Of a DNA stretch of 64,000 nucleotides, positions 24,628 to 50,421 are shown piece by piece. The stretch's first letter is position 1, and every line of letters begins with the position of its first letter. The notes beneath the pieces were generated by a model. The model had not been told where the DNA came from. It saw only the letters and a program-made list of their open reading frames with translations, and did not search any database. The DNA is from Rhizaria sp. SCN 62-66 (lineage: Eukaryota): contig MEDY01000125.1 in the NCBI GenBank assembly GCA_001724265.1, positions 1 through 64,000 of the forward strand. Reading direction: 5' to 3'. The translations under genes and the position numbers were made by a program.

Positions 24628-27360
24628 ATGGCTGAAGAAGAGGATCTGAACGTGAACCCGCTGTTCGAGTACCTGCAGGGCGGCAACGTGCTCGAACAGG
24701 CCGCCGCCAAGAACTACCTCGTTCTCATCCCTGCCGCAGCCTCGCTCGCGCTCTGCACCATTAACCGTGAGTTTGCCACCACGCATATCCTTGCGCGACC
24801 GAAGCCCGACGCCGCAGACCCGACAGCGCACGCCACTGTGAGCGGCAAGATCGTCCACTTGCGCGACCGCGCCTTCACCACAGGGGCTGGCTTCCCCACG
24901 CCTGCGCGCGTCTGCGCCGTCGCCTCCGAGGAGACGTACTACACCGAGAGCTTTGCGTCCTTCCAGCTCATGCGCCTCACGCTCCCGCTGCTGGGCAAGG
25001 TCTCCCCCGCGTATATGCAGTCGATCTCGGCGCAGCCGCTGAGCTCGACGCCCGTCGATCGGCGCACGCCCGCCGAGCACGAGGCAGTCCTGCGCAAGGC
25101 ACTGCCGGCCGCCGCCGCGGACCTGGCCGCCTTCCGCGCGCGCTTTGCCGCTGAGTTCCTCACCAGCTACGTTATGGTGCGCGGCTTCGAAGGCCAGACC
25201 GGCGACAAGGTCCGCAGCGCCTGCGCCAAGGCTGTGGCGGACGCCGTCGCCAAGCAGCGCGCCGCGCCCGCGTCGTCGTCCTCGGGCCCCTCCGCCGCGG
25301 CGGCCGCGCAGCAGGGCCAGGCGGCGCCGGGCGTGTTCAGCGCGGCGACGCTGGCGGAGCTGGAGGTCGCGCTCGACGCCTGTGTGCTCAGCGACATCGG
25401 CGGCAAGGTGCTGGGCACGATCCGCGAGTTCTACGCGCGCGCCGACGCGTCGCTCACTGCATTAGGCGCCACGGCACAGGTGCTGCGGCTGCCCGAGCTT
25501 CTCGCGCTGCTGGGGCTGCGGCCCGCGCTGCGTCCGGACCTCACGGCCGCGCTGGAAGCCTTTGAGGGCGTGCTGCCGGAGCAAGACGCACACTAGCACT
25601 CGCTGTCGCGGTCGCATGCGCACGCGCAAGCGCCCGTGCCGCTACAGATGCTGGGCGCGCTGGAGCGCACCGTGCGCGCGCTCACCGCCGCCTGCGAGGC
25701 CGGACCCAGCACCAGCTCCGCGACTGCGGGGGCGTCTGGATCGTCTGGGTCCACGGCGACGGCTGCCGCCGCTGCGGTGAGCGCGAGCGACCCGGTGACT
25801 GCGGACGACATGTTGCCGCTGACGGTCGCGCTTGTGCTGCACTCGAACCACGACCACCTGCACAGCCTGCTGCAGTACCTCCGCCACTTCAAGCCCCCCG
25901 CGGCGACCGCGGGGCGGCTTAACTTGTCGCACCTTGAGGTCCACCTCGTGACCTTCGAGTCGGCCGTGGCCTACGCGCGCTCCGACGCCTTCAGCGCGGC
26001 CCTGCACGCCGCGATCACCGCGCGTGCCGCCTCGGCCGCCGGCGGCGCGACAGCCGGCGCAGCGCAGTCCGCAGGCCCCGCCAGCGGCCGCTTCCGCGAG
26101 TCCGTCGGCGGCGCGGGGCACGGCGCCGGCGCCGGCAGCGGCGGCGGCGGCGGCGTCTACGGACCCGCGCTGCTCGGCGCCGGGGGCGGTGGCGGCGGCG
26201 CGTACGGCGGCGGCCACGCGCTCGCCACGTCCTCGTCCGCGTTGCACCCCGCCAGCGGTGCGATCGGCGTCAACGGAGCCAACGGCGGCGACGCGAGACG
26301 CCCGTCGCTGGCGCAAATGCAGATGCAGGCGCTGAGTGGCGGCGACGCGCGCGGCGGCGGCGGGCTCGATGCCGCGCGCGGCGGGCTCGCGCGCATCGGC
26401 TCCGCCTCCCGCATCTCGCTCTCGGGCGCCGCCAGCACGAACGGCAATATCGTCTCTGGCAGCGGCGTTAGTAGCAATGGCGGCGGAATGACGCTACGGA
26501 ACCCGGCGCTGGGCTCGGCGGGCACGCTCCCCGGCCGCCGCGCCACGGCCACCGTCGCCGCGGGGCCCGTAGTCTCGCTGGTCCGCGGCGCCGGCGGCGC
26601 CGGCGGAGCACTCCACGGCCACGGCTACGGTGCGGGCGCCGCGGGGGCGGAGAGCTCCGACGATGACTCGTCGACCGACGATCTCGGCGGGGGCGGCCAC
26701 GGCTACGGCGGCGGGCGGCACAGGCGCGCGCCATCGGGCGCGGGGACGGGAGCGCTCTCGCTGTCGCGGTTCGGTTCCTTCCACGCCTCCGACCCCGAGG
26801 ACGGCGGCGCCAACGCGCACAACAGCAACGCGGGCGTGAACGCGCATAGCGGGCTCCAACAGCACCAGCATCAGCAGCTGAGTCTGGACGCGCGCGTCGC
26901 CGCGCTGTCGCTCGCGCCCGCGGCTACGGGGGGCGCCCGCGTGCCGCCGCACTCGGCCACCCACCACGCCAGCGCCGGCGGCAATGCGCAGTCCGGGCTG
27001 CGGCCGCGCGTCAACTACGGCGAGATCGCCCGCCAGACGCGCCATGAGCTCGGGCTCGACGGCGGCGGCGGCGGCGGTGCCAACGGCGGGCTCTCTCTCC
27101 GCAACCACGGCGCCGGCGTCGCGCCGGGCAAGTACGGCACGATGCCTGCGCGCGGCCGCGGCAGCGTCAGCGGCGGGCTACCCGGCGGCGGCTTCGGGCT
27201 CGGCGCGGGCAGCCACGGCCACGGCCACGGCCCCGGCGCCGGCGCCGGCGCCGGGGGCCAGGGCGGCGCGGACGAGGCGGACCCAAACCTGGGCGCGTTC
27301 TTGTCCAGGCTCATGTCCTCGGACTCGGCGTCGGGCCGCGTCAACGAGTACAAGCGCTGA
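24628..27360 (+). CDS. VPS9-domain Rab GEF with a VARP/ANKRD27-like N-terminus, about 910 aa, one in-frame TAG (25594-25596)
   Basis: N-terminus EEDLNVNPLFEYLQ...LVLIP...SEETYY resembles VARP. The VPS9 core motif ADDMLPLTVALVLHSN lies downstream of the TAG in the same frame, and GC-rich coding composition is continuous across it. Stop TGA. Confidence 0.75.
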
Positions 27361-27682
27361 GCACCGCGTTGATCAGCATGCGCCGAGCAGCGCCACAGCT
27401 AGCTGTCACACAGCTAGCTGTGTGCGCGTGATACAGTCTGAGGGAGACAGTGGTGATATTTTCATTTTCAAGTTGGCGATGTGGTCAAAAATAATCACGA
27501 ATTTGCACTGATTTAGAAGAACAAACTGTACTGAATACAAACACATTAATAATCGAATTCGACTGTATTGTTTTTTATCATTGCATGGCCCCTGTTGGCT
27601 TACTCGCCACCGCACTGCGCCACTGCGCTCCTAAGCTAATCATCTCTGCCAAAACAAACCACTGCTCTCTCCGGCTCAAAGC

Positions 27683-29339
27683 TCAAATGGGGAGCTGGTA
27701 GGCGAGCCCAACGCTGTCAAAGAGCGCGGGCAGCCAGAGCACTGACACGAGCCCCATGAGGAAGTAGTTGACGGCCTTGTCGCTCATCTCGACCATGTAG
27801 CGCCGCCACAGCGCCGTCGACGCGCCGAACTTGGCCGCGCTCGGTGCAGTCGCCGTTTCTGACGCGGCCGCGGTCTTGGCCTTGGCGGAGGCCTTCGCAC
27901 TTGTTTTGATCTTGTGGGAGCCCTTGGCGGCCTTGTGCGCCCGCGCCGCCACCGCGTCTAGCTCGCACGCCGCCGCCGCAGCGCTCGCACTTGACTGCGA
28001 CTCCGACTCCGACTCCGACTGCGTGTCTGCGGCTGCAGCGTCGGCGGGCGAGCTGGGCGTGACGGGCTGCGACGACGAGGGCGAGGGCGGGACGTAATCG
28101 GCGGCGTCCTCGGGGCGGCCGAACACGGCCCCGGCGAGCGCGCGCACGGGCGCCTTGAGCGAGAGGCGCATGGCGTAGATGAGCACGACGTTGGCGGCCA
28201 GGCGGCCCACGGCCAGCGCCAACTGCCAGCCGCGCGGCAGCGCCACTTGCCGGTAATGAGCCACCACACTCGCCACTCCGGCGCCCGCAGCGCCCGCGGT
28301 GGCGGCGGTGGCGGTGTGGAGGACTGGCACGGAGGGCTCTGGGGTGAGCGCGAATCCGGCCAGGATGCCGGCCGCGGTGAAGAGCACGATGACCGTGTCG
28401 CCGGGGCTGTTGGTCCAGCGCGCGCGCGGCAGCGGGTACGCGGCGGCCGCGGCGATGGCCAGCGCGACGACCGCGGCCGCGCCCAGGGGGCCCGACAGCG
28501 CGGCGGCCAGCGTGGCGCGGAAAGGCACGATGAGGAGCACGGGAAACACACCCAGCACGAAGCCGCCGACGACGTCGAGCGAGCTGTGCACGCCCAGGTA
28601 GAAGCGAGACAACGGCGTGGCAACCGCCCAGAAGAGCAGGAAGGCGATGAGCGCGGCGAAGACGGCGGCGTCGTGCACCGAGTAGAGCGTGAGCAGCAGG
28701 AACAGGAACGTCGTGGGCTGCGACGCCGCGCCCATGGTGTGCGTCGACGGGAAGCCGTACTCGGCCGCGTAGTGCGTCTCGAGGCGCGCCACGCGCGAGC
28801 CGCGCTGCAGCCCGGGCCGCGGGAGGTACAGCGAGTCCTTGAGGAACTGTCCCAGGTACATGACCACAGCCCAGAGGACGACGACGGAGAATGCCACGGA
28901 GCGGTCCACGCACGTCGCGTTGATCGTCGCCCAGGTCGCGTACCAGGCCTCGTTGCCCAACTCGGACGCCAGTGACAGCGCCGCGTCCACGAACGGATAC
29001 GGCGACCGCTGAGGGGATGTAAAAACAGAAATGTAGGGGCGTTCAGAAGAGTGGGGCATGAGTATAAGACGGATGAGAAACTGACAGTGAGCGATGCAGA
29101 TTGCATCGAGTGAGAATAAACGTGCTTGCTGACGTGCAGCAATCGCGTACCTTTGCGCCGAGGCCGGTCTTGGGGTCTGGCGCGGTGACACCGAGCGCAC
29201 GCTGGACGCCAACGACGTGGTGCTCGTTATCGAGCACGAGCGGCAGCAGCACGCCGTGTAGCCGCCGCCACACGGTGCCCTTCGCGGGCACCTCCTGCGG
29301 CGCCTGCTGAGGCGAGGCAGACAACTGGGAGACGCTCAT
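27683..29339 (-). CDS. PAP2-family lipid phosphate phosphatase, sphingosine-1-phosphate phosphatase (SGPP/Lcb3)-like, 2 exons, about 504 aa
   Basis: Exons 29339-29151 and 29008-27683; intron GTACGC...CAG. Motifs KDSLYLPRP, EYGFPSTH, SRFYLGVHSSLD and multiple hydrophobic helices. Stop TGA. Confidence 0.88.
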
Positions 29340-30303: not shown

Positions 30304-33012
30304 ATGGGCAACGGATGCTCTAAGCAGGACTCGCAGAAGCGCAACATGGGCATCGTGACGACGCAGTACGACGTCGAGGCGCGCCGCGGGCCCGCGCAGG
30401 AGGAGGAGCAGGAGCAGGAGGAGGAGGACTACGAGGAGGATGACGAAGAGGCACTCAAGTCCTCCAAGGAGCGCCTCCGCGAATGGTTTAAGAACTTCAT
30501 GGAGGAGAACGAGGCGGACCGGCGCTCGGTGCAGACGTGGTCGCGCCTCTGCATCTGGCGCTACTTCTGGGACTACCTGTTCGAGGTCACCTACAGCGAC
30601 GACCTGCTTGACGTCGAGAAGTGGGGACGCCAGATCCCCTCGATCTTCCAGCGACACATGAACATCAAGCGCGTGGCGGAACACACGCTGAAGAAGATGG
30701 AGAAGAAGCACCGCGACCGCGTGTTCTCGCAGCTGTGCGCCTTCAGCGACCTGCAGGGCCCCGACATCTACTGGGACGAAGACCTCCGCGCGACGGGTGT
30801 CGACGGTCTCAACATCGACGAGTCGGACTCGCTCGACGACATGAAGTCGCTCACGACGTACTTTGGCACGCTGAGCATCGACCTGTTCCTGGAGCCGACG
30901 CTGCCGATCCGCGGCAAGTGGGTCTCGGCCAACTACACGGGCGATATCACCGGCAACGGCGCGAGCGACGATAACCAGGAGTCTTCCGACTTCGTGGTGC
31001 TGACGTTGACCAAGGACGGCTGGGACGACCTGAAGCTCATCACGGCCGTCAACAACCATCCGCGCGTGAAGAAGTTGCGCGCGGCGCGGCAGAAGGTGCG
31101 CATGCTGCACGGGCGCACCGTGTCAGTGCTCATGAAGAACTGTCTGCGCTGCGCGACGCCCATGATGGAGGGCGTGTCGCAGTGCTTCGTTGAGGGCATG
31201 CTCGAGTTCAACGAGCACTCGCTGAAGAAGCTGCCCGACCAGATCCTCGACTACGACGCCACCTTTAAGTTCCGCCTCCGCAACATCAACACGACGAAGA
31301 TCGACCGCTGCGGCAAGGGCTGCCAAGGTAACATTCCCACGGCGCTGGCCGAGCTGGACCCCGACCAGTTCTTCATCGGCTCGCTGCTGGCCAAGAACCC
31401 CATCCCGCCCGCTGTGGCGGCCAACTGGGAGGCCGCGCTGCGCCGCCGCCGCACTTGCGGCCTGTCGATGCATTTCTACGCCAACGTCTACGCCAACAAA
31501 GACATGCCGAAGCAGCCGCACGAAGTGTGCAAGGTGGCGTTCGAGAAGTGCGAAGGCTCGCGCTCGGAGCTGTACCAGGACCTGTTCGAGAACACGCAGC
31601 CCAAGATCTCCAAGGCCGTGATGGAGCTTTACCGCCGCATGGACTCGGTGTCGCTGCACCCGGACCGCGCGTACTGGTTCAAGTTCTGGGTTACGGTGTG
31701 CAAGACGCTCTTCCCCAACTCGAACAACGTGCCTGACACGATGTGGGACTTCGACTTCATCAACAACCACAAGGCCATCTGCTACCGCATGCTCGAGCGT
31801 GACGAGCTCGAAGACGTCATCAAGCGCTCCAAGGTCTTTGACAACGCTGACCTGTACCTGAGCAAGAACCACTCGGTGGACCGCGTGCTCGACATGCTCT
31901 ACCGCAACATGGCCTCGATGCGCCTCCGCGCCAACGCCGACGGGACCTACTTGATGGCCGAGAGCTCGGCGCCTGGCGCAACCAACGCCGACGGGACGGC
32001 GGCCGACGGCGGCGCCGCGGGCGGCGACAAGGCCGACGGGGACAAGGCCGACGGCGCGGGTGCGGGCGGCATGCCCGCGGGGCTGTCGCCGCAGATGCAG
32101 ATGATGTGGCCGATGATGATGGCCATGATGGCTATGAGCGGCAACGCTAACAGCGGCAACCCTGCGCAGATGGCCGAGATGATGAAGACCATGAGCGCGA
32201 CCGCCACGCCCGGCGCCGCCGGGGCCCCCGCGGACGGCGGCATGGCGGCCATGATGGCCATGATGCAGCAGATGATGGGCGGCGCGGCCGGCAACGGTGG
32301 CCTCAACAACGCCGCCAACGGCGCCGGTGCCGGCGCGGGCGGTGTGGGCGCGCAGCAGTTCCTCGCGGAGCGGCAGTCGCTGCTGACGCCGGCGCCGGCG
32401 ACGCGCGACGAGTTCGACCGCGCGGCGGCCGAGTCGCAGGAGTGCATGGTGCGGCTGCTGGGCATCCAGAAGTCCGTCGCCGAGGGCTCGTTGGGCCCCG
32501 ATCGCGCGCGCCTGCTCATGGCCGAGCTGGCCTTCGAGTTCCCCGTGCTGATGCAGGCCGTGGGCGGCGCGCAGGGACTCGCCATCGTTGGCGGCAGCGC
32601 GATGCAGCAGCAGCAGCAGCAGCTGCAGCACCAGCAGCAGATGCAGGCCATGATGAACCAGGCGCAGGCGCTCGCCGCGCAGGCCGCCGCCGCCGCCGCC
32701 GCCGCCCAGGCCGCCGGGTCTCCGCAGCAGGGCTCCCGGCGCGCCGACACGGGGAACGGCAACGGCGGCGGCGGCTTCCTGGGCGGGATCCTCGGCGGCC
32801 GCGGCGACGAGACCAAGAGCGACACCGAGGGCGTGCCCAAGTCGGCGCCGGACTCGGACGACGAGGATGACGACAACGGCAAGCAGGACCCGAACAAGAT
32901 GAAGATGCGCAAGGGCGGCGGCGCGTACCAGCGCACCTGCGGCACCATCACCGACAACGGCGTCGAGGACGAGGAGCAGCCCCAGGACCCCGACGGCTGC
33001 GTCGTCATGTAA
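30304..33012 (+). CDS. Hypothetical protein, 902 aa, with an N-terminal MGxxCS acylation motif and a C-terminal CaaX box (CVVM)
   Basis: Long ORF with strong GC3 bias; globular-looking region of about 540 aa followed by a Met/Ala/Gly/Gln-rich tail. Stop TAA. Confidence 0.85.
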   Translation: MGNGCSKQDSQKRNMGIVTTQYDVEARRGPAQEEEQEQEEEDYEEDDEEALKSSKERLREWFKNFMEENEADRRSVQTWSRLCIWRYFWDYLFEVTYSDDLLDVEKWGRQIPSIFQRHMNIKRVAEHTLKKMEKKHRDRVFSQLCAFSDLQGPDIYWDEDLRATGVDGLNIDESDSLDDMKSLTTYFGTLSIDLFLEPTLPIRGKWVSANYTGDITGNGASDDNQESSDFVVLTLTKDGWDDLKLITAVNNHPRVKKLRAARQKVRMLHGRTVSVLMKNCLRCATPMMEGVSQCFVEGMLEFNEHSLKKLPDQILDYDATFKFRLRNINTTKIDRCGKGCQGNIPTALAELDPDQFFIGSLLAKNPIPPAVAANWEAALRRRRTCGLSMHFYANVYANKDMPKQPHEVCKVAFEKCEGSRSELYQDLFENTQPKISKAVMELYRRMDSVSLHPDRAYWFKFWVTVCKTLFPNSNNVPDTMWDFDFINNHKAICYRMLERDELEDVIKRSKVFDNADLYLSKNHSVDRVLDMLYRNMASMRLRANADGTYLMAESSAPGATNADGTAADGGAAGGDKADGDKADGAGAGGMPAGLSPQMQMMWPMMMAMMAMSGNANSGNPAQMAEMMKTMSATATPGAAGAPADGGMAAMMAMMQQMMGGAAGNGGLNNAANGAGAGAGGVGAQQFLAERQSLLTPAPATRDEFDRAAAESQECMVRLLGIQKSVAEGSLGPDRARLLMAELAFEFPVLMQAVGGAQGLAIVGGSAMQQQQQQLQHQQQMQAMMNQAQALAAQAAAAAAAAQAAGSPQQGSRRADTGNGNGGGGFLGGILGGRGDETKSDTEGVPKSAPDSDDEDDDNGKQDPNKMKMRKGGGAYQRTCGTITDNGVEDEEQPQDPDGCVVM

Positions 33013-33483: not shown

Positions 33484-34120
33484 TCACTTGACGAGCTTGC
33501 CCGTGGTGCGCAGCTCCTCGTACTTGGCGGCGACGTGGTCGGGCATAGCCTCGACGTGCGGCCTGAGCGCGGCCGACGCGTAGCGCAGCTTGGACCGGCC
33601 GTCACGGTACAGCGCAGCGGGCGCGCCGGTCACGTCGCACGCGCGCGACGGGCAGCGCGTGGACTCGCCCGCCTGGATCGAGAGGTAAGACGAGGCCGTG
33701 TGCGGCAGCTGTTGCTGCTCGAGCTGCGCCAGCTGTTTCGTGCCCTTCCAGCCGCCGCCGCGACCAGTGCCTGGAGCGCGATAGAAACAACGCAAAACGA
33801 TGATGTGAGAGGAGATACAAATATAATACAACGTATTGCATAATATAATAGGATACTTTGTTGGGTCGAAGCTATCTTTTTGATGTTGTAGGAGTCGTAC
33901 CAGTCTTGGGGAGGTTGGAGCGGGTCGATTCGCGCCAGTCCTCGTTCTTAAACGTCGTGGGGGCCGCCTTCTCGGGGTTCTGCAGCACGCGCAGCGAGTC
34001 CGCGTGGGCCTCAGCGGACGCGCTCCAGTGCGCCACGCCGGCGTCAGGCACCAGACGCGCGACGTCGATGACGAACTCGGTGGCCGTGAAGTGGACGCCG
34101 TTGTCCATCTCGTCAGCCAT
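33484..34120 (-). CDS. IES6: INO80 complex subunit C / Ies6-like (YL1_C domain), 2 exons, about 168 aa
   Basis: Exons 34120-33901 and 33770-33484; intron GTACGA...CAG. FKN...WKGTKQL...SYLSIQA...CDVTGAPAALYRDGRSKLRY resembles INO80C/Ies6. Stop TGA. Confidence 0.75.
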
Positions 34121-34595: not shown

Positions 34596-37500
34596 ATGCT
34601 GCTGCAGCGCGTGCTCTCCGCCCGCCGGCGCCCGCCCTCGGCCGACTCGGCCCTGGCGGCCCCCGCGGCGGCCGTGAACCACCAGACGGTGTGGGTGCAG
34701 GGCCGGATCACCGTCGAGCGCCTCGTACGTCGCACAAAGAAGTGCTCTCGCAATCACTCTAACGTTTCTGAATACCCGCATGATTTTTCTGGGCGCTTAC
34801 TTTGTTGCCATCCCTTCCCTACTTCATGAACTTCGCTAACCCTCCTTCTCTTGATCTCGCCCGCTCTTGATAACGGTCACAACTGCCACTGCCAACCCCA
34901 ATCTCTCGACACCGACGCGAACGCCCCCGCTCAGCGCCAGCTCTGCATGCAGACGGACCTGACGCGCGTGACGACCTTTGAAGTCCGCGTTTCGGCCGAG
35001 GAGCACAATCTCAGCGAGCTCCTTGCCCTCCTGCCGCGCCTCCAGACTCTCACGCTCGACGGGTCCAGTGTGGCTTCCTTCCGTGACCTGGGCATCGCGT
35101 CCGCGACGCTCACGCACCTCAGCCTTGCGCGCGTGGGGCTGCTCGACTTGGACGGGCTTGCGGATGCGCTGCCCAACCTCACGGACCTCAACCTGGCTGG
35201 GAACCCACTGTCGGACATCGCGCCGCTGGCCTACCACGGCACGCTCAGGAACATCAACCTGCAGGGGTACGTTTACTAAACAAGAGCTCGAAGAGCTGAT
35301 ATTATCTTCGATTTCAATATAACGCCCCTATTGTGATTTACTGCTTTATTTGAGTCATTAATTCTGTAAATTACTCCGAACTATGCTCATCTTGATGTAT
35401 ATAATCCATATCTTGGGTCATTATTATCCCAGGACCCGCGTGGCGGACTCGGACTCGCTCGACTGGCTGGCGTCGCTGCCGAGCCTGTCGCGCCTTACGC
35501 TTGCGCTGACCCCGCTGTGGACGCGGCTCTTCTACTCCCGCGTGCTGCTGGCCCGCATCACCTCGCTGACGACGCTCGACGGCCGCGCCGTGACGGCCGC
35601 CGACGCCGCAGGGTGGGGCCGGTCGCCCGCCGCCGCGCTGCCTCTGCTGCCCGCTCTCCGGGCCGCCATCGCGGACCGCGCGTGCGACCTGGTCGACGCC
35701 GGCGACGCCGAGGCTGCGCAGCTCCTCACGCTCGACGCGGTCTACTACAGCAACGATAACGGCAACGGCAGCGGCTCTCGCAAGGACCCTATGGACGTGG
35801 CGCTCAAGCTCCGCAAGGAGGCGCGCCGCAGCCGCCTCAGCAGCAACGATGACGGCGACGCTGGCGACAGCGGCGGTGTCGACGATGATGACGACGAGGA
35901 GCAGCCGTCCGGGCTGCCGGGTTGGGCGGAGCGGCTAGTGCTGCCCACCGCCGCCGCCTGGGCCGGCATCGCGCGCGAAATGTACCGCGGCGGCGGCGGT
36001 GGCGGCAGCGGCGACAACGGTGATGCTGCGCAGCAGGGGCCGGTGGAAGACGGCGTGGGCGCTGCCGCTGCCGACGCCGAGGCTGAGGCGGAGGCCGAGG
36101 CGGAGGCCGTTGCATCTCGGTCTGTGCCGCAGCAGCTACAGAAGCCTGAGCCTGCGTCTGCGCATGTGCCAGCGCCTGTGCACGCAACTGTATCCGAGCC
36201 TGAGCCGGAGACCAAGATCGAAACGAACCCCGAGCCCGTCGTCAAGCCCGAGCTCGTGGCTAAGCCGGAGCCTCAGCCTGAGCCTAAGCCTGTGTCTGCG
36301 CCTGCGCCTGAGCCTGAGCATGAGGCGTGGCACCCGCTGTCCAACCCTCCCGTGCCCGCCTCCCCAGTGCAACCCCTACATTCACAGTCAGTGCACCAGT
36401 CTCAGCCGCTGTACCAGTCGCAGTCAGTGCACCAGTCGCCGCCGTTGCAGCAGCCGCCGCAGCAGCAGCCGCAGCGCACGCCGTCGCAGCGGCAGCCCTC
36501 GGTCTCCGCGCTGCTGGCCGCCGCCTCCTCCGCCACGGACTGTACGAACAATATGGTCACTGCAGCTGGTCCTGCTGCTGCCAAGGCTGGCGAGGACGAG
36601 GACTACGACGACGGCACGGACGGCTTCGTAATCCCCTCCGCCCGCGCCGCCGCCGCCGCCGCCGCCGCCTCTGCGCTGCCCTTCAGCAGCGGCAGCCTCG
36701 GCCTGACCGCGAGCGCGGATAGCACCGCCGGCTCCGGCGGCAGTCTGCTGTCGGCGTCGTTCACGGCCTCGGTGGTGGCGTCGTCGCTTTCGGCCGGGCC
36801 GTCTCTCGCCGACGCCTCGGCCGCGCAGCGCAAGGCCTTCGAGGAGTTCCAACGCAAGAAGATGGAGGCCATGCTCGGCAAGTCCTCATCCGCGGTCGCC
36901 TCCGGTCCCAGCGGCAGCGCTGGGCTCAGTGCCAGCGGCTCCATCGGCGGCGGCGGCGGCAGTGCGGGACTGTCTCGCATCGCCACTGGCGCTGCCGCGG
37001 CCGCCGCTGCCGCCGCCGTGGCCGCGGGGCCCGCCGCCGCCGCCGCACTCATCTCCAGCTCCGGCGGCCCCGGCCTCAGCCACAGTCAGCAGATTCACAG
37101 CAGCTACAGCCAACAGCAACAGCCTGCGCCGGCGCCGGCGCCGCTGGCCGCGTCTGGCGCGATGGGCGCGCAGGCCGCGTTCATCGTCAACAGCGCAGCC
37201 GCGCGCCGCGCGCTGTCGGCCGGCACCGCCTCCGCGGTCTCCGTCACCGGCTCCGGCGCGCACGGCGCCGGCGTACAACCGAGCTCGAGTGGTTCTGGCT
37301 CTGGCGCTGGCGCGAGCTCTGCGGGGGCGCCGCGGCTGTCGAGCGCGGTGGCCGTGCGCCGCGCCGCCGTGGCCAGTCTGTCTTCCTCCGCCAACGCCAA
37401 CGCTAATAGCGGCTTCGGCCATAGTACGGGGCCGGGGGGCCCGCTGGCGAGTCTGTCGGGCACGGGCCGCCTCAGCAGCTCCAGCGTCAGCCTCGGCCCC

Positions 37501-37974
37501 TCCGCTTCCGCCTCGGCCGCAGCCGCGGGTGCGGGCGCTGGCGCTGGCGCGGGCGCGACTTCTGCCGGCTCGAGCGTCAGTGCGAGCGCGGGCGGTAGCG
37601 GGCCGACGACGCTGATTGCGACCGGGGGCCTGGGCTCCTCGGGGCGGATCAAACTCAAGCCGCGTCCTCCGCCGCCCGGGGGAGGCTCTTCTGGCGCCTC
37701 TAGCGGCCTGGGAGCGAGCCTGGGGTCGCCGCTCTCAGCCCCGGCCCCGGCCCCAGCCCAGTTGGAGCCGCTGCCGCCGATGTCCCCCCACTCCTCGCAC
37801 CGCCCCAGCCAAGGCCACAGCGGCGACGGCGACGACGGCAGCGGGGCGGCGCCGCAGTCGCCGCCCGGGCCCGGCGCGGGCGCGGCGGGGCACGCGCACG
37901 CGGTGCTGACGTCGGGCAGCGGCCGCCGCTTCGTCGCGGTCAAGAAATCAGCCACCCCCACCGCGGGCAAGTGA
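34596..37974 (+). CDS. LRRC56: Leucine-rich repeat protein, LRRC56/ODA8-like (dynein assembly factor) with a long low-complexity tail, 3 exons, about 1000 aa
   Basis: Exons 34596-34724, 34935-35266 and 35433-37974; both introns GTACGT...CAG. LPRLQTLTLDGSSVASFRDLG...LSLARVGLLDLDG...LNLAGNPLSDIAPL resembles the LRRC56 repeats. Stop TGA. Confidence 0.75.
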
Positions 37975-38374: not shown

Positions 38375-38902
38375 TCACGTCCTGATGCCAAAGGAGAAGT
38401 TGGTGGCAATCTCGTCGCCGCGCTTGACGTGGTCCGCGGCGGTCGCGGCCTCGGCGCCGGCCTGCGCGGCGGCGTCTGCCGCGGCCAGCGCGCCGGGCTG
38501 CGCCGCCACGGCGGCGGGGTCGAAGCCCTGCTGCAGCGCCGACACGCGCGCGCCGACACGCTGGCGCATCGCGGGCGCAGACAGCGAAGAGCCGTCCCAC
38601 TGCGCCAGCGCCGCGCCCGTGTCGGCCCCCGCCGCGGCGAGGATACTGGTCAGCGAGTCGGCGAGGGACAGGGCCAGCCGCTCCTGAGTCTGCGCCGCGC
38701 GGACCGCGTTGCGCGAGGCCACCTCGCCCGGCGCCGCGCTGCGCAACTGCTCCAGGTCGCTCGCGTAGATGGCCGCAAAGCGCGCAATCGGTGCGGTCGC
38801 ATCGTCGGCGGAGGCGGGCGCCAGGGACGTCGCCAGGTCCTGCCGGCTCGCCTCGATCAGGGCCGCGATGTCGGCATGCGGAGTTGCGTCGTCGAAGTCC
38901 AT
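38375..38902 (-). CDS. Hypothetical Ala-rich helical protein, about 175 aa
   Basis: GC-rich ORF from ATG 38902 to TGA 38375, bounded by AT-rich DNA. Probable 5'UTR intron 39111-38911 (GTACGT...CAG). Confidence 0.7.
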   Translation of the reverse strand: MDFDDATPHADIAALIEASRQDLATSLAPASADDATAPIARFAAIYASDLEQLRSAAPGEVASRNAVRAAQTQERLALSLADSLTSILAAAGADTGAALAQWDGSSLSAPAMRQRVGARVSALQQGFDPAAVAAQPGALAAADAAAQAGAEAATAADHVKRGDEIATNFSFGIRT

Positions 38903-40401: not shown

Positions 40402-40437
<36 letters not shown>

Positions 40438-40711
40438 GGTCGACGGCGACGGCAAGAAGAGCAACCCGACCAGCTCGCTGTCGTTCTTGTCTTCGCTGCT
40501 GCCCAAGTACTTTTCCTCTCAGTGGTCCTTCTCCCAGTTCCGCGTGCCCGAGGTGCGCTCCATCGTCGCCTTCGGGGCCGAGCCCAACTCAATCGTCGTC
40601 GTGTGCGCCAACGGCGCCTTCTACAAGGCCGTGTTTGACCAGGAGAAGCCAGGCGCCGAGTGCGTGCAGGACTCCTTCGTCGAGTTCGTCCGCGGCCCCG
40701 AGGACGAGTAA
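39626..40711 (+). CDS. ATG18: Autophagy PROPPIN Atg18/WIPI3-4-like WD40 protein, about 361 aa
   Basis: FNQDNGCFACGT, VEMLFRCNILALVGGG, ATASEKGTLIRVF, phosphoinositide-binding LRRG, SDKGTVHVF. Stop TAA. Confidence 0.95.
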
Positions 40712-41100: not shown

Positions 41101-43589
41101 TCACTGCATCTGCTTGCTTAAATGTGCGCGCATGCTGTTTTCGAGGGTGAACGGCGCCAGCGACGGCACGAGGGCGGTGACCAGTGCGTCGCAGACAGCG
41201 GTCTGGAACTGGCGAGCGCCCAGTGCGGTCACCCAGGGACCCAGCGCAAGCCCCCAGCTCACGCTGCCGGACTCGGCCTCCGCCACAGTGTCCTCCGTGT
41301 CCAAAACATCAGCACTGGTGTCGACGTCACCGCCGACAGCAGCAGCAGCGGCTGCGTCGACGGCGCTCCAGGGCGCGTCGCTCCACTCGCGCACGGCCAC
41401 GCGCACCACGGCCGCCACGTCGGCGCCCACGCTCGTCCCAGTCTCTGCGTTGTCAGCGGCAACAGCAGCCTTGGCGGCGGCAGAGAGGACTGAGCTCGTG
41501 CAGGCGCGGCGCACCGCGGCCGACACAGGCACCACGGCGCGGCCCCGCTCGTCGTGCTCGCGGCCGCTGTTGCTGGCGCCGTCAGCGTCGCTGCTGTACA
41601 AGGACACGGTGGCGACGACGGCAGCGCCGCCCAGCAGCACGAGACACTCGAGGCGGCGGAAGTGTTGGTATGAAATAGCTTTGCACGCGCTAGAGCTTTT
41701 GTTGCGGCCGGTGCGGGTGTGCGGAGTTGAGCCAGGACCAGCGTACGTACCGTCAGCGCGCCGCTGCGGCACTGCAGACGACAGTGCGGCCTTCGCAGAA
41801 CTCGTGAAACTGGTCGAATTATGTGCTGATATCATACAAGCCCACGCATGGTTCCAGTCCTCGTTGACAACGCGCGTCTCGCCCTGCAGCAGAGCCACCG
41901 CGGCATGCCTGCCGCCGCCCCGCATAGCAACCACGGTCGCGACCCCCGCAGCGGCGCTGCCCACCGCCGCGGCCGGGAGGAGGAGCGCTGTCGCCTCCGC
42001 GCAGCGGTTGAGCGCCTGGGCCAGCAGCGCCGCCGCGGGGGGGAAGCGCGCGGGAATCGGCCGCACCGCGGGCAGCAGCGACAGCGCCGGACGGGGCAGC
42101 GCCGGCTGGGGCAGCGCTGGCTGCGCATGGGGGACTGAGAGTAAGAACGCTCGCCAAGGCACGCGCGCGAGCACGGCGTGCGCGTCGCCGGGCAGCGCCA
42201 GCGTTACTGCGAGCGCGACGCCGCGCGGGGCTGCGGTCCACGAGGGCAGCGACTGGGCGAGCAGTGGCAGATGCCGGGACAGGGACTGTGTGAGCGAGTC
42301 AAGAAGACGCGCGCAGGCTGGTGCCGTGACGGCGACACCGTAGCTCTCGTTGTCGTTGTCGCTGGTCCTGTTGTTGTTGTCCTTGGCGTTGACGCTAGAA
42401 AGACTCTTCACATTGCCGCTGGTGGAGCCCACCGCGCCTGCAGTGGCGGTGAGCAGCGCGGCTCCAGACGTCGCACTCGTCTCAAGATCGCCCACAACAA
42501 CAAGCCCGCTGACTGTTGGTGCTGGAGCTGCGGCTGCGGGCGTGACAGCGACTGCTGTGGGTGCGCCCGCTGCGCCGCAGAGCCGGTCGTGCTTGACCAG
42601 GGCCAGGCCCACCGCGAGCGCGGCGCCGTCCACCGCCACGGTCACCGAGTCGAGCGCCAGGACCTCGGCGTCGCTGTCGCTGCTGGAGCACGCGGCCGCG
42701 GCGCCATGGCTGTGGTCACTGTGGGAATCGCTGTCACTGGCACTGATGCCACCGCCACTAATCAAAGCGTCACCACGGTTCGCCTTGATAGATGCTTGAG
42801 CAGCCTTGGCCGAGTCCCTGAGAGACTTTGCAGCAGCCTTGGCATCAGCCTGCTTTGCGGCGTGCGACGCCGCGCGCGCTGCTTTGAACGGTGCAAGAGA
42901 GTACTCGACCTCCAGAGCGCGGTTACGAGATCCGGACCGCTTGATATTCTGCCCACGCCTACGACGATCATTATGCTGCGCAGTATCGTCATCGCTGTCG
43001 CTCTCAACCTCGTCGCGAACATTGCTCTTGCTCGCAGACTTCCTGCTTTCCTCATTACTTAACTGATCAGGCGCCAGAACGCGGCGCGAACGCGCAACAG
43101 TGTCGGCGATGGCGACTGCTGTCGCTGCGCAAGCTAGCGCGCCGCTCGCAGGCCGCAGCGTCGCCGCAGTCACGTCGTCGCCAGTCAAACAGCCCACAGC
43201 CTCAGACAACGACGATGGCGCCAACGACGGCGAGTGCAGTGCAGTTGCGAGAGACTGCGAGCGCGAGAATGAGCGCAGCCACGCGAGCGCGCGGTCCGCC
43301 TCGATCCCCACAGCATTCGTCGGCGGTGAGCGGGCAAGATCGGCTGCGGCGGCGCTTTGCAGCGACGAGCGTAGGTGGGAGCGTGAAATGAAGTGTGGGA
43401 CCAGCAATAGGGCCAGGTCCAGCGAGAGGGGCCTCGGGGCCACGGGAGAGAACTGAGTGTGGCACATGCAAGACGAAGGAAAACGCAGTATAGACAGGTG
43501 AGCAAGTGATCTCAAATTAGCGCAAGAAAAAAAAAAAGAGTTAACTTGTCACATAGGACTTGACAGTCACGTACCTCGGGATGGTCCAT
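41101..43589 (-). CDS. Hypothetical Ala/Ser-rich protein, probably 2 exons, about 788 aa
   Basis: Long minus-strand ORF ending TGA at 41101. A micro-exon MDHPE (43589-43575) plus intron 43574-43453 (GTACGT...CAG) joins in frame. No domain recognised. Confidence 0.6.
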
Positions 43590-43822: not shown

Positions 43823-45058
43823 TCAAAAACTTGCGAATACATCTTTTAAAATGTGAAAGACGTACCGGTATGTCGCCCTCTCTCGCACGAGTGCGCGCAA
43901 CAGGCCCCCGCCAAGCCGCTGCGTCGCGCATGCCAGTACAAAAGCCAATGCTGCAACTGTCGCCAGGCGCACCAAGAGCAGGAGAGTTGCAGCTGACTCA
44001 GGAGAGAGCACCGCGACGTCGCTGCTGCCATTTTTGGCTTGTATCAGCTGCGCGTACGAAATGCCCTCGCTCGCTTCAGATGTGCTGCCGACAACGCCAA
44101 CAAGCAGTGCAAACGCGCTCGCAGCGGCCCTACGCGGAGGCATCGTGAGCAGCAGAGTGATAATCGAAAGGACTGCAAGCGGCAGCCGGGCGCGCGGCAT
44201 CAGCAGCAACATCCTGCTCCCGGCCTCGGTCGCGACCACCAGCACGGACAGCAGCGTAGCCAGCCAGCGCCGCTGCCTCACAGCACGCGCGAGTGCCACG
44301 TACGCGCGCTCTAAGAGCCATGTAACGTTAATTTTCTGAGCAGGCGTGTCCGTCTTCCTTTGTGCATCATCGTAACTGTTGTCCACAGCATTGTTTGCCA
44401 TGTGAAACGCGATAGTTTTGCCGTCCGTCCACCGCAGCAGCCCTGTCGCGCTGGACTTAGCGCAGACAGACCCAATCATAAGAGCGACGGTTACTATGAG
44501 CGCAAGCTTGCGCACGAGCGCCCCCATGGCGGCCGCAGCAACGGTGACTGCGGGATCGGACGAAGCGACTGTGAGCAGCATAGCGGTGACCGTGAGCGCG
44601 GCGATGGTGGGCAGCAGCGGCAACAGCGTCCCCGCAGTGTCGCTAAGACCAAGTCCGTCGTGTGCAAAAGCGGCGCGGCGAATTAGCGCACAGAAAGAAG
44701 CGAAAGCTACGACACATACGGCAGCAGTGAATGCTGGATCAATCACCGAAAATATATATGACAGCACCGCAACCTTGACAAAAGGACTGAACAGCAAACC
44801 ACATAGCGCAAACAATGCAATGGTAATGGTTGCAAGTGCGCGTGTCGATGACCAGCGCGAATGTGCGACCGCAGAGGTCCGGGAGAGCGAGACTTGCGTT
44901 GCAGCGGGAAGCTAGCGCAAACAGAGCAGAAGCGGTATAACGGCTAGGAAATACAGGAATGACGTGGCATAGACGTTAAACGGCGCGAGATCGTCAAGCC
45001 AGAAGCGGGCACATACACTATCAAGCGTAGCCAGCAACGCGCGCGTCGGCGAGCTCAT
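43823..45058 (-). CDS. Hypothetical polytopic membrane protein, about 411 aa, one in-frame TAG (44912-44914)
   Basis: From ATG 45058 the frame reads MSSPTRALL...FLAVIPLLLCLR*LPAATQV... and runs into the 330-aa hydrophobic ORF with only one TAG. Stop TGA at 43823. Confidence 0.6.
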
Positions 45059-46361
45059 GGCGTGTGGCACTACGTGCGAAAGGTTGAAGGAGGCGAAGGG
45101 GTCACTCAGATTAAGTGAGATTTACTCGCCTTTCTCGTTTTCTTGACTGGAAATAACACAATATTTCAATATTATAGGTAAACTTAAAACAGAATCAAGA
45201 AAGTAAAGTGAATGAGAATACGGACTCACGTTGAAATCTAGAATGAAGTAATGTCATGCCTACTTTCTCAACGGCTCTTAAAAAAACGTTGATTTCCTTA
45301 TCTATCGCAGCAATTTGATCGTTAATGCATGTATATATTCGCTGAAATACAATTAATAGAGCAACACATTGAAATCCATGATTATATTTGTGATCAGTTC
45401 CAAATCACGTCAGTTGATTCATATTTGGGAAAATTGCTAGCACAGTTGTATGGAGAGAAGAGTCGTCGAACGAGACATAGAGAAAACGCATTACATGAAG
45501 ATATAACGCGCGTCAAATCACGCAGAAAACACGCTTTCCAACAACACCAGCAACGGCCTTTCGATGTTTTGAAACGCGGGGGCGCTCACAGGCGCACTCG
45601 GCGCGCGCGCGCGCTGGCCTCGCAGGCGCAGCTCCAACCTCACATCACTGTAGTCTGCTGGGGACGGGTGAACGGCGGTGAGGCTGGAGCTGTGCGCGGA
45701 GGCGGCGGGGGCGGCGGCGGGGGCGGTGGCGATGAAGATTATGATTGCGATGAAAAAAATAGCACAAGGACAGTCCGGTATAAAGACAGACTGATGGGCT
45801 CGGGTTTGCATAGCATAGCGTAGCTTCGCATAGCTTGATTCATCGAGAAATGTGTTTGAGAGACAGATTGGGAAACAACGGGGGTTGCAGGCGACCGGCA
45901 ACAAAGGTGACGCAGCGCGGGGGGAGGCTGACGGCACCGCTGTTGCAGGTCTGCCGCAAGAGACAGACAGAAAGAAAGACAGACAGAGCTTTGCGTTCTG
46001 TGTGAGTGCATCTGAGTGAGTGCATGTGTGTCAGTGTGTAAGAACAACACAGATACACGCAGCCAGACACTGTGAGACGTTACAAGCAGAAACAACAAAG
46101 AAGATGAGACAATACAAAACAAAACAAAAAACGGTTACCCTAGGTAGAAAATACGCGGCTTACGTTACAGATGATTCTAGTTTAGCTTCGCACGCACGCG
46201 CTTGTACGCGCGCGTGAGTTTACATTATAGGCAGTCGGTACAGAGGGGCCTTCTCACCGGTGCGCCGCTAAACACCCGCTTCGCTCGACCGCGCACTCTA
46301 CATTAACGTGCGTGCACACACACAGTGGCCTCTGTAGTCTGTACGAAGACGCGTGGCGGGC

Positions 46362-49283
46362 TTAGAGGTAAAAGGGCATGGGCATGAGCGCCGGGACGAG
46401 GCTGTTGGTGCCCCAGGCGCCGTCGACGTCGCGCTCGCCGCCCGTGGCCGCATACTTGCCCGCGTAGTAGCGCGCGCGGTAGGCAAGCAGGTGCGCGTAG
46501 TACACGGGCGCGGGCAGCGAGACGGCCCGCGAAGCGCGCTGGTGCAGATGCGAGAGGTAGAAGACGAGCTCTTGCGCGGCGTCCATGTCGTACGCGGTAC
46601 CGTTGTAGATGACCTGGTACAGACAAGGACGCGACGTGCCCTTGAGCCCCGCGTGGCCGAAAAGGAAGAACTCGTTCAGGTCCGGCCGCACGACCTCGGT
46701 GTCGACCACGGTGCCCGACTGCAGGTTCCCCGACTTGTCGATCGCGTCGCTGCTGATGCCGCTGAAGCGGACGTGGTGGCGCTTAACCGCCGTGAGCGCG
46801 AGCAGCTGCGGCACATACCCCGGCTTGACTTCCTCGGCCGCGGCCAGGATGGCGGCGACCTCGCTCTCGATCACAGCCAGCACCTGCCGGTCCGAGACGC
46901 CGTCGCGCAGGTACACGATCTGCGCGGGCGGCGTCGTCGTCTTGGTGAAGCGCATGTACTCCAGGATGAAGTACTTGGCCGCGCGCTTGGCGTTGGCGAA
47001 CGGCACGCACTCCTCGCGTGAGCCCTGTTGCTGAACCACGCCGCCGTACTGCGTCGCGGCGGCGTCGTGCGAGCCGACGAAGGCGCTGTGCGAGCGACGG
47101 CCCGCCGCGGGGTCATGATAAACGTCTGCCCCCAACACCAGCGTCGGCTTCGCCCTCAGCACCGCGGGCAGCGAGTCTGGCGCGTGATGGTTCACGCCGC
47201 CCAGCTTCGCGTTGACTTTGAGCAGCACGTTGAGGAAGTACCCCGGGGTGGCCTTCTTGGGGTTGGTGATCTTGGCGGCGTCAAAGCACTGCGATGGTGA
47301 GCCCAACCGCAGCTCGCACTCGCGCTTGAGCACAGCGTACGCCGGGTCCGCGGCGTTGACAAAGCCGAACACGAAGTCGGGCCGCTCCGCGGGCGCGAGC
47401 TAGGCGAGCTTCTGCAGCTCCGCTTCGACCTACGCGGCGCTGCGGCAGTCGATCTTGCGCCTGGGACGCGCGATGGTGACGCCGACGTCTTTGCCGATCG
47501 CGACGAGCTGGTCGATGGCGTCCTTGATGTGCTCGTCGCGCACGCGGGAGCTGGCGCAGATGATGATCGGGGCGCGGATCGGGCGCATGGCGGCCGTGTT
47601 GGCAAACTTGTGCCCCGCGGGGCTCCACACGCCGGGGCCCATCACGCGCGGAGCCGTGTTGCCGAACATCTTGACAACGGGCGGCGGCAACACGCGAGCC
47701 GGCACCGAGAGCACCTGGTCGCTCACAAGCACGCCCTCGGCCTTCAGCGCGGGCGCCGCGGCCAGCGAGGCGGCGTGCTTGCGCGCCATCTCGATGCGCA
47801 CGGCGGGCGCCATGCACGTGAGGTCGACCAGCGCGGTGCGCTGGCGCGTCGACAGCTCGGGTGTGACGCGCTGGCCCTCAAGCACGCGCAGGACCTCGAG
47901 CGGCAGCACCACGTCGCGCTTGCCCGCCACCACGGCCACCGGCAGCGCGCGGTTCGACACCGAGCCCGGGTACGTCTGCTTGAAGTAATCGAACACGGAG
48001 ATGCGCGCGCCCTCGGGCGTGGTGATCTTGTGCTCGCCGCTCGCCGCGCCCAGGCGCTCCAGCGTGTAGCGGCGGCGGATCTTGTGCGTCGTCTCGACGC
48101 GGAGCCCGCGGACCTTCTCGCCCGCCACGTGCGGCGGCACGCGCGCGATGTCGGCCGTTAATTTCAGGTCGAGCGAGTCGGCGAGATACTTAGTCAGTGC
48201 AACGGGCGCGATCATGTCCATGGTCGTAGTGTCGACGTTGAGCATGAGTCCGCGCGCGCCGACGCGGGGCGCCTGTAACAGCCCCTGCAGCAGCACGGCG
48301 CCCTGCCCCAGCGCGGGCATGTCGGCCAGCTTAGCCAGGTCGAAGAGGCTCGGCCCGTTGGTCAGTGGCTGCTTGTACCCGCGCCGCAGCCCCGCGCGGA
48401 CCACCGTCTCCAGCGCCTGCACCGCCGTTGACGGGTACTGCAGCGCGGCGGCCGCGGCTACAGAGGCGGCGGCCGCGGCTACGGAGGCGGCGGCCTGTCG
48501 CTTGGCGCCGCCGGCGCCGCCGGCCGCCAGACGCGCGACCTGCTCGGCGTAGTCAGTCAGCTCGGTGAGCGAGAGCGTGCCAGTGTGCCGCAGCGTCACG
48601 CGCACGTGGAACTTGCACGGCGCCGCGGAGGCGTCGACGGCGCCGTCCTCGGGGGACTGCTCGGGAGACGCGGCGGGCGCTGCAGCGGCGGCAGCGGCAG
48701 CAGCGGCGGCAGGCTCAGGCGCAGCCGAGGCGTGGCCCCCACGGGAAGCAGGAGCGCCGCCGCGGCCGCCGCGGCCGCCGCGACCGCCGCGACCGCCGCG
48801 ACCGCCGCGACCGCCGCGACCGCCGCGACCGCCGCCGTCAGCGCCAGCGGCAACGTCAGCAGCCTCCGCAGCGGCAGTGGCAGTGGCAGTGGCAGTGGCG
48901 GCGAGCGCGGCGTCCATCCTGGAAACGACGGGGGCCCTCCTGGCGACGAGGGTGGACGCCTCGTCTTCGCGCTGCTGCATGCCGATGAATTTCGGGTCAC
49001 GGATAAACACCACAACGTCCTTGTTGTCGGCGTCCAGCTGCGTAAACGAGTACGCAAGCTGCGTGCCGTCAAAGCATAGCCCCGCGGCGGCGGGCATCGC
49101 CTTCTGCAGGTCGGCGACGAGAGTGTGTCGCACCAGCGCGTTGTGCACTGGGGGGTCGAAGTGCACCGCGTATGAGTGTAGCGGCTTCACGTTCTTGAGC
49201 ACAACGGAAACCAAGTTTGATTGAACAGTGATTATGCGGCCCTTCGTGCCTGGAGGCAAGCGGGCCGCGAGCGTGAGGCTCAT
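46362..49283 (-). CDS. AGO: Argonaute protein (N-PAZ-MID-PIWI), about 973 aa, two in-frame TAG codons (47430-47432 and 47400-47402)
   Basis: N-terminal GTKGRIITVQSN; PAZ ISVFDYFKQTY...LPLEV; MID/PIWI SQC, LKVNAKLGGVN, GADVYH, LRDGVS, VKRHHVRF, GTVVD, GTSRP, PAPVYYAHL. Track ORFs 47430-49391 and 46362-47372 share one frame and are separated only by the two TAGs. Stop TAA. Confidence 0.92.
48757..48837 (-). repeat. 9-bp tandem repeat encoding (GGR)8, an RGG box in the Argonaute
   Basis: Units ccgccgcga / ccgccgcgg on the + strand; translation GGGRGGRGGRGGRGGRGGRGGRGGRGG. Confidence 0.9.
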
Positions 49284-49950
49284 GGTAAGAGTGAAAAGCT
49301 GAGTTGACGGAGGAAGAACATGGCCAAAGGGGGATGAGGTAAAAGAATGGAACAATGTGGAAGAATAGCACGATACTAAGATGTCACTCAAACATATAAT
49401 GAAGATTAATATTTTTTGTCTCGGAATTCTCGAATGAAAATGCCAATTTGCGGCATTGTGACGCGTGAATGCTCGCGTTGATGGGCGGTCAACTCAAAGT
49501 GGTCAAAAATCGTTTGTTGAGGCTACAAAGTCGTTTGTGGCTACAAATGCATTTTCGTAGATATCTATGTAGATCTGCTTTTATCGAGAGTATACGGTCA
49601 AACTATATCATTTATGCGATGTTTTGTATGTTATATCTGTGTGATGCCCCATAGACTTGCTATTGTGATGACGTAACGTCTTCCAAACACAACAGTAATT
49701 GCCTATCTAACTTAGGTGATGCAAAACTGGTCTACTCGAGTAACAATCGCGGTCAAACAAAGTACATCCTCGCCGATCATTTCCGGGTGGCTAGTCAACA
49801 ACTTGAAACAGTCCCATTCTGGTCTATAAATGCAACGTCAGCAATGATCAAACTTGAAGCTCACGTTACCGACAATCGCTGATGTCAGCAGTCAGTCCAC
49901 AAGCCAAGCCGTGCCACATCAAAGCCTGGGTGAAGAGTGACCCAATGCGC

Positions 49951-50421
49951 TTACTTGTAGAGGTCCGCGTTCTTGACCTTGCACCAGCCGCCGTCGTCGC
50001 GGCGCATCGGCATGTCACCCACCTTGTCGGCCACACTGTCGATGTTGTTGGCCGCAGCCGTGCTGGGCGCCTAGTCGGCCGACTCCGTGGCGCCCTTGAC
50101 CGCCTGTTGCGCGCGGTCCGCGGCGGCCTTGGTGTCGATCATGCTGCCCTCATCGAAGTGCTGCATGACGCGCGCGTCGTTGGAGCGGTCCGTCACGCGG
50201 TTGCCCTCGGCGGACTTGATGCGGGTGTTGCCCTCGCAGTTGAGCGCGCTCGCAGCCTCGGACTTGTGGTCGTCCGACGCCGGCGCGCCAGGGGTGTGGT
50301 TCGAGACGTGGTTGAACAGCTCAACGCTCATGCGGTGCGATGAGTCCGTGCCGTCGCTAGCGGAGCCATGCTTGGACATGTTGCCGTCGCGCTCGATGGC
50401 CTTGGGGGCATTTTCGGACAT
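49951..50421 (-). CDS. Small hypothetical protein, about 156 aa if the TAG at 50071-50073 is read through; possible HNH-like motif
   Basis: ATG at 50421. GC3-rich codons continue for 39 codons past the TAG (APSTAAANNIDSVADKVGDMPMRRDDGGWCKVKNADLYK) to TAA at 49951. Confidence 0.65.

Follow-up and report, generated by a model that had tools for sequence, protein, structure and literature searches.

Probable use of UAG as a sense codon in nuclear DNA of an uncultured cercozoan

Nuclear genetic codes in which UAG alone has become a sense codon are few, and they bear on the mechanistic coupling of UAG and UAA through eRF1 and wobble. The closest described case is rhizarian exLh, a sainouroid found in the transcriptome of an insect. 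Its UAG encodes Leu and its genes terminate with UAA (56) or UGA (15); of the 384 UAGs counted in 71 transcripts, most stand at conserved Leu columns, and UAG is rare in ribosomal protein genes (PMC5304391). Panek et al. 2017 asked how far the exLh reassignment extends among sainouroids and called for genomes (PMC5304391). Here we analyzed a 64,000-nucleotide stretch of contig MEDY01000125.1 (in the following, the window), in which five TAG codons lie in frame within four genes, i.e., a VPS9-domain gene, an Argonaute gene, a small open reading frame (ORF) and a putative membrane-protein gene.

Other codes provide further points of comparison. UAG alone is read as Gln in Iotanema spirale, Protocruzia tuzeti and some phyllopharyngean ciliates, as Leu in other phyllopharyngeans, and as Ser in the green alga Scotinosphaera, where UAA is a stop (PMC11687900). 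Both UAA and UAG (UAR) encode Gln in many ciliates, hexamitin diplomonads, Ulvophyceae and an aphelid (PMC11687900). There, UAG = Leu (exLh) is used as NCBI table 16 and UAG = Gln as table 15. In I. spirale, UAG makes up about 8% of Gln codons (PMC5304391).

We consider it likely, with good confidence, that UAG stands for an amino acid in the window and does not terminate genes, that UAA and UGA are the stops, and that this nuclear DNA comes from a flagellated cercozoan that has not been cultured. The UAG-sense code is probably real; this kind of code is already known, and the organism is new to it.

In-frame TAG codons and gene terminators

The five TAGs and the genes that hold them are as follows.

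24628..27360, plus strand, VPS9-domain gene, 910 codons, ends in TGA
25594..25596, plus strand, in-frame TAG, codon 323 of the VPS9-domain gene
46362..49283, minus strand, Argonaute gene, 973 codons, ends in TAA, with Pfam ArgoN, L1, PAZ, L2 and Piwi
47430..47432, minus strand, in-frame TAG, Argonaute codon 618
47400..47402, minus strand, in-frame TAG, Argonaute codon 628
49951..50421, minus strand, small ORF, 156 codons, no Pfam family, ends in TAA
50071..50073, minus strand, in-frame TAG, codon 117 of the small ORF; the 39 codons past it have a third-position G+C content (GC3) of 0.92
43866..45058, minus strand, first exon(s) of the putative membrane-protein gene, no Pfam family
44912..44914, minus strand, in-frame TAG, codon 49 of the putative multi-pass membrane protein (weak site)

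A script confirmed that all five are in frame, and their coordinates and the peptide contexts quoted in the original prediction agreed with the DNA and its translations. Because any frame may stay open by chance in such GC-rich DNA, we derived a codon model from 11 ORFs of the window that contain no TAG, 9,856 codons in all, and computed log-odds per codon on each side of every TAG. The in-frame values were +0.50 upstream and +0.40 downstream of the TAG in the VPS9 gene, +0.44 and +0.52 on the two sides of the Argonaute TAGs, and +0.66 before and +0.74 after the TAG of the small ORF. At these four sites, the other two frames scored −0.5 to −1.4. Directly past the final TAA or TGA, the log-odds fell to about −0.9 to −1.1 (−0.89 past the TAA of the small ORF). 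For the membrane-protein gene we obtained −0.32 and −0.27, compared with −0.67 to −0.92 in its other frames; its next ATG is found about 110 codons downstream of the TAG, within hydrophobic segments. The proposal that coding sequence continues in frame on both sides hence stands, with positive log-odds, for four of the five TAGs, i.e., two in Argonaute, one in the VPS9 gene and one in the small ORF, and is only plausible for the weaker fifth, in the membrane-protein gene.

In Argonaute, homology runs through both TAGs. A complete Piwi domain follows them (residues 640–939, E 1.9e-67, Pfam), and a phmmer search of PDB chains matched human AGO1 (4kre_A) by one unbroken stretch (residues 281–945, E 1.4e-80), with TAG 618 opposite Ser and TAG 628 opposite Asn. 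Alignments with 8 and with 120 homologues, the larger one made with MAFFT, spanned both TAGs, TAG 618 without gaps. The nine codons between the TAGs fit a conserved [IV]-E-x-x-L pattern among the 120 homologues and leave no intron-sized gap. Moreover, the columns of D720, E758, D794 and H931, which we take to be the catalytic DEDH positions, were invariant in the nine-sequence alignment.

The Pfam VPS9 domain likewise lies downstream of the TAG in its gene, at residues 338–452. An exhaustive phmmer search with the VPS9 protein gave 119 matches, and in several of these homologues a single chain includes both the VPS9 domain and the N-terminal region, e.g., P0385 (query 5–451 aligned to 4–440) and P0443 (query 3–471). 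The top match, P0371 (24628–25593), is a public gene call of 322 residues that is identical to residues 1–322 and ends exactly at the TAG; standard-code gene calling thus already cuts short proteins of this host in public catalogues.

We then placed the terminators. The window holds 22 ORFs, of which 12 end in TAA and 10 in TGA, and not 22 genes with 11 of each, as had been counted. Joining of exons across the first four introns listed below reduced the 22 ORFs to 19 genes.

14730..14911, minus strand, intron of TTC21/IFT139, 182 nucleotides, G+C content (GC) 0.35, GTGCGT..CACAG, holds TAA 14870; Pfam TT21 domains on both sides
10351..10502, minus strand, inferred 3' intron of TTC21, 152 nucleotides, holds TGA 10386
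35267..35432, plus strand, intron of 166 nucleotides, GTACGT..CCCAG, joins the leucine-rich repeat (LRR) ORF to the ORF ending at 37974, holds TAA 35277
63129..63278, minus strand, in-phase intron of 150 nucleotides, GC 0.37, GTACGA..ACACAG, holds in-frame TAA 63153
33771..33900, minus strand, intron candidate of 130 nucleotides in the gene candidate at about 33484–34176

The 182-nucleotide TTC21 intron alters the reading frame. The earlier statement that no gene model contains an internal TAA, TGA or frameshift had therefore overlooked introns, since three TAAs and one TGA are intronic and one intron changes the frame. The defined exons, on the other hand, comprise 15,009 codons with 5 internal TAGs, 0 TAA, 0 TGA and no frameshift. 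Introns in the window are few and uniform, 130–182 nucleotides long with GC of about 0.35–0.37 compared with about 0.7 in exons, 5' ends GT[AG]CG[AT] and 3' ends CAG; several hold an in-frame TAA within their first 15 bases.

Of the 18 placeable terminators, nine are TAA, nine are TGA and none is TAG.

6435..6437, minus strand, TAA of EF2
18810..18812, minus strand, TAA of thiolase
23649..23651, plus strand, TAA of CDC48
33010..33012, plus strand, TAA of a 902-codon ORF without assigned function
40709..40711, plus strand, TAA of PROPPIN
46362..46364, minus strand, TAA of Argonaute
49951..49953, minus strand, TAA of the small ORF
51979..51981, minus strand, TAA of the PUA/MCT-1-like gene
59614..59616, plus strand, TAA of a 2,192-codon ORF
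2023..2025, plus strand, TGA of a 5'-open ORF with weak coding score
4716..4718, plus strand, TGA of importin-alpha
10189..10191, minus strand, TGA of TTC21/IFT139, past the 3' intron
27358..27360, plus strand, TGA of the VPS9 gene
27683..27685, minus strand, TGA of the PAP2 gene
37972..37974, plus strand, TGA of the LRR gene
38375..38377, minus strand, TGA of a 208-codon ORF
41101..41103, minus strand, TGA of a 788-codon ORF with weak coding score
60069..60071, minus strand, TGA of the two-exon gene 60069–63998

The tally includes the two weakly scoring genes (2023..2025 and 41101..41103). The membrane-protein gene was left out because GTACGT at 43865, which resembles a 5' splice site, precedes its TGA (43823) by 40 nucleotides, and the gene candidate at about 33484–34176 (minus strand) owing to its uncertain coding frame. 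Of the 2,840 stop triplets counted over the two strands of the window, 627 (22%) are TAG, and under this composition null 0 of 18 TAG terminators has P ~0.011. That TAG goes unused as a terminator was thus borne out for the placed ends. The base after most of the 18 terminators is G, and GCG follows seven of the nine TAA stops.

Parts or all of 43800–50600 were present in 13 run rows from 8 studies of bioreactors, wastewater and activated sludge. We compared four runs over 30601–50600, a stretch outside of which the site at 25594 lies; 43274–45274 is among the parts with little cover in runs X5 or X7. Runs X1 and X2 appear to be a single data set, the probable source of the window, and their 5,196-nucleotide contig is the same as JGI contig L001. 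X5 comes from a study other than that of X1 and X2. One of its contigs (47157–48300) differed from the window solely at 48276 and another (49629–50428) had zero differences, so that the TAGs at 47400, 47430 and 50071 are independently confirmed in X5. In the four runs compared, none of the TAG sites has a listed difference, deletion or joint.

The case is carried by the absence of TAG terminators, by the intact domains downstream of TAGs, by the absence of frameshifts and by identical letters in independent samples. With homology through the TAGs of two genes, codon bias continuing past four TAGs, the X5 letters and 0 of 18 TAG terminators, the original prediction of a sense UAG next to UAA and UGA stops is upheld. 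By analogy with established cases, UAG would be read by a tRNA whose anticodon is CUA, and eRF1 would have lost or weakened its recognition of UAG (PMC5304391). Such a tRNA would have arisen from tRNA-Gln(CUG) or tRNA-Leu(CAA).

UAG is a very rare codon in the window. Exons contain 5 TAGs, about 0.03% of codons, next to 566 CAGs and 69 TTGs. The genes in which TAG occurs are lineage-specific or moderately conserved, whereas EF2, CDC48 and the other strongly biased genes have none. This rarity and distribution point to a codon that is decoded inefficiently, or to one that is young or has nearly been purged.

Alternatives to a sense UAG

A number of observations weigh against the reading of UAG as a sense codon. 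The sample is small, i.e., one 64-kb window with 5 TAGs and 18 terminators, and the upper 95% bound on the share of TAG among terminators is still about 15%. None of the TAGs falls within a conserved column or a Pfam match, so that no consistent amino acid is demonstrable in the window. The VPS9 TAG is situated inside an insertion of about 20 residues that is absent from homologues, and the membrane-gene TAG within a weakly scoring gene. In the small ORF, TAG is followed by GCG, as are 7 of the 9 TAA terminators, and a dual meaning of TAG must hence be kept in consideration. Run X5 is labelled RNA-Seq cDNA and was judged to be probably DNA, which limits its unchanged TAGs as RNA evidence; the listed polyA-RNA contigs of X7 do not reach the TAG sites. 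A tRNA-CUA gene was not found in the 64-kb window by ARAGORN or Rfam, nor does the window contain an eRF1 gene. Guttulinopsis vulgaris, the sampled relative of exLh, probably keeps UAG as a stop according to Panek et al. 2017 (PMC5304391). Finally, single-step nonsense changes in the codon usage of this DNA lead to TAG in 75–77% of cases, and five of five internal stops being TAG has P ~0.24–0.27 even for pseudogenes. That all internal stops are TAG is for this reason a weak argument when taken alone, as the same outcome is expected from a pseudogene or error model.

Among other explanations, read-through survives best, and we regard it as improbable. On this view, translation of the four genes would continue past TAG with some efficiency, and elsewhere in the genome TAG would go on terminating genes. 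The extreme rarity of TAG (5 of 15,009 exon codons) is as expected of a poorly decoded codon, a TAG share of up to about 15% is possible with 18 terminators only, and the GCG downstream of the small-ORF TAG is shared with true TAA ends. Yet composition predicts 22% TAG terminators and none of 18 was found; translation of the Piwi domain would need two read-through events within 10 codons of Argonaute, and the five TAG contexts have no motif in common.

Still less probable is a standard code in which the TAGs arose by nonsense mutation in genes that are decaying or polymorphic, or are errors of one assembly. The mutational bias toward TAG given above makes five of five unsurprising in this model. 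The same letters were found, however, in the independent run X5 and in JGI contig L001, and neither a frameshift nor another stop occurs in 15,009 codons. Piwi and VPS9 are full length downstream of the TAGs and the codon bias is undiminished there. Moreover, four or five broken genes among 19 are implausible in a compact, gene-dense region, and the absence of TAG terminators would be left unexplained.

Slightly less likely again, the TAGs would be removed or changed in mRNA, as ends of tiny in-frame introns or by U-to-C editing to CAG: all of them end in AG, an in-phase GT lies 27 nucleotides upstream in the VPS9 gene, where the segment is an insertion relative to homologues, and another 30 nucleotides upstream in the small ORF, but in-phase GTs within 30 nucleotides are common by chance, the Argonaute residues around and between the TAGs align to homologues and leave no space for an intron, and no deletion or joint was listed at the sites in the compared runs, including those labelled cDNA or polyA-RNA. 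The introns found in the window, at 130–182 nucleotides, AT-rich and with GT[AG]CG[AT] ends, are unlike the GC-rich stretches around the four solid TAG sites (GC 0.70–0.72), which argues further against TAGs as intron ends.

Host placement and other features of the window

The window has 64% G+C, with blocks of high GC interleaved with AT-rich gaps. Pfam matches identify eukaryotic, nuclear-encoded proteins, i.e., importin-alpha, EF2, TTC21/IFT139, thiolase, CDC48, a VPS9-domain protein, a PAP2 phosphatase, an LRR protein, PROPPIN, Argonaute and a PUA/MCT-1-like protein; several large ORFs are without a Pfam family.

We used CDC48 for placement. Among the 120 matches listed, the named ones were from chlorarachniophytes, namely Lotharella oceanica (74%) and Amorphochlora (73%). 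Further names came from look-ups of the clusters: Bigelowiella natans, Guttulinopsis vulgaris, Leptophrys vorax, Nonionella stella and Lapot gusevi are rhizarians as well, and one sequence came from a Ploeotia vitrea data set. A tree was calculated from 28 of the 120 listed matches, i.e., the best ones and all with a name or an EukProt or MMETSP label (832 trimmed columns, IQ-TREE, LG+G4, 1,000 ultrafast bootstraps (UFBoot)), and rooted on non-rhizarian sequences (Albugo, Nelumbo, an arachnid and one further record). The window and P0133 (85% identical) together were sister to a group of G. vulgaris, P0213, P0225 and P0234 with UFBoot 100, nested in a clade that also contains the chlorarachniophytes. 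This CDC48 tree points to a cercozoan (Rhizaria) as host, with G. vulgaris as its closest named relative, and places it in the neighbourhood of rhizarian exLh. We take the placement near Sainouroidea as a good lead and not as a result, because it depends on one gene and on taxa selected by hits, and because a long branch leads to the G. vulgaris clade. A CDC48 scan of genome contigs gave no close relative (17 loci, at most 71% identity over a fragment).

Several genes show features of their own. EF2 (6435–9224, minus strand) has 929 amino acids, and matches of the usual 850–860 amino acids span only 80–83% of it; environmental EF2s of 870–948 amino acids span 100%. The Pfam GTPase-domain match is broken into two stretches. 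Together these matches suggest a lineage-specific insertion in EF2.

The thiolase apparently starts with MNRIDVLLSHA (about 20080–20105, minus strand). This would fit the pattern R-[LVI]-x5-[HQ]-[LA], which we assume to be that of a type 2 peroxisomal targeting signal (PTS2), and suggests a peroxisomal 3-ketoacyl-CoA thiolase. The long ORF upstream of thiolase contains a sixth in-frame TAG, in sequence of low codon bias ahead of the likely start Met. We counted it as untranslated, given this low bias and its position before the Met that opens the presumed PTS2-like sequence.

For the product of the 902-codon ORF, structure matches reached template modelling (TM) scores of 0.14–0.21 only, on a poor model, and were unusable. 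Compared with the window, a polyA-RNA contig of run X7 (31383–31536, plus strand) has 12 differences, at distances divisible by 3 and all on third codon positions of this ORF, which is hence expressed in a related strain under purifying selection.

In Argonaute, a run of GRG/RGG repeats with long Ala-rich tracts is found between the N domain and linker 1 (residues about 160–178; 48750–48830, minus strand). Distant homologues have neither the repeats nor the tracts, and many unrelated metagenome contigs stack there.

ARAGORN reported one tRNA, an 86-nucleotide tRNA-Arg(gcg) at 12719–12804 (plus strand), antisense within the TTC21 coding sequence. The Rfam tRNA search of the window at gathering scores had no match, there or elsewhere, and we treated this candidate as probably false.

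Amino acid assignment and comparison with known codes

Which amino acid UAG encodes was assessed at the two alignable sites, both in Argonaute. Column 618 holds N28, Q27, D19, R10 and S9 and none of L, I, V, M or F among 116 residues; column 628 holds K20, S13, R12, A11, T11, N9, Q8 and L5 of 110. Leu, as in a code of the exLh type (table 16), thus appears in 0 of 116 and 5 of 110 residues at two sites that are both variable. These polar columns make Leu a less likely candidate. A crude product of column frequencies over candidates one step from TAG gave Q 0.86, S 0.47, E 0.11, K 0.04 and L 0.01. At TAG 618, the three closest relatives in the Argonaute alignments have D, E and D, and at TAG 628 they have M, N and A. 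A metagenome scan with the Argonaute alignment, from which 80 loci were kept, returned contig L001 as the sole locus of the host organism, the others being excluded by their GC; none of these others was a close orthologue that would show the TAG sites, the next relative being 47% identical.

From these two non-independent and variable columns, Gln appears favoured over Leu. The suggestion of a likely Gln is accordingly retained in part: Gln fits the two sites better than Leu, and kinship with exLh keeps Leu under consideration. The closest named relative belongs to a group with known UAG = Leu, and Leu had also been kept as a candidate in the original prediction. We estimate Gln as the leading single candidate at a little under an even chance, with Leu well behind it and all other residues taken together slightly ahead of Leu.

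A second UAG reassignment near sainouroids, to Gln or another polar residue as opposed to Leu in exLh, or else an older shared reassignment that was almost purged by GC pressure, is conceivable, and we put it forward tentatively. If true, the group would be a natural series for the capture and re-capture of a stop codon. Given how little UAG is used, the organism would represent codon capture either early on or close to reversion. The window organism would be an addition to the non-ciliate group for which the question of extent was posed, and as a GC-rich, intron-poor relative recurring in wastewater reactors (8 studies) it could answer this question from existing data. A literature search with partial coverage found no paper on a rhizarian from wastewater or activated sludge with reassigned UAG.

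With exLh, the window shares a rhizarian nuclear code with UAG as sense codon and only UAA and UGA as terminators, and UAG is rarer in highly expressed genes of both organisms; in the CDC48 tree, the sister of the window sequence is the clade around G. vulgaris, from which the relative of exLh was sampled. In contrast, UAGs of exLh are many and occur at Leu columns, whereas in the window UAG is about 0.03% of codons and the two alignable columns are polar. The window organism was found in wastewater and exLh in an insect.

Iotanema, Protocruzia and the phyllopharyngeans with UAG = Gln resemble the window in that UAG alone is reassigned and is a minor codon, and the Argonaute columns are compatible with their Gln (27 of 116 and 8 of 110). 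These are unrelated lineages, however, i.e., a fornicate and ciliates, and Gln is a candidate in the window. Scotinosphaera also reassigned UAG alone, and its Ser is the second-ranked one-step candidate at the two Argonaute columns; it too is an unrelated lineage, and nothing in the window is specific to Ser. With the UAR = Gln codes, the window may share the capture of a stop codon for a polar amino acid. UAA is a sense codon there, whereas in the window it ends 9 of 18 genes and is found 0 times in exons.

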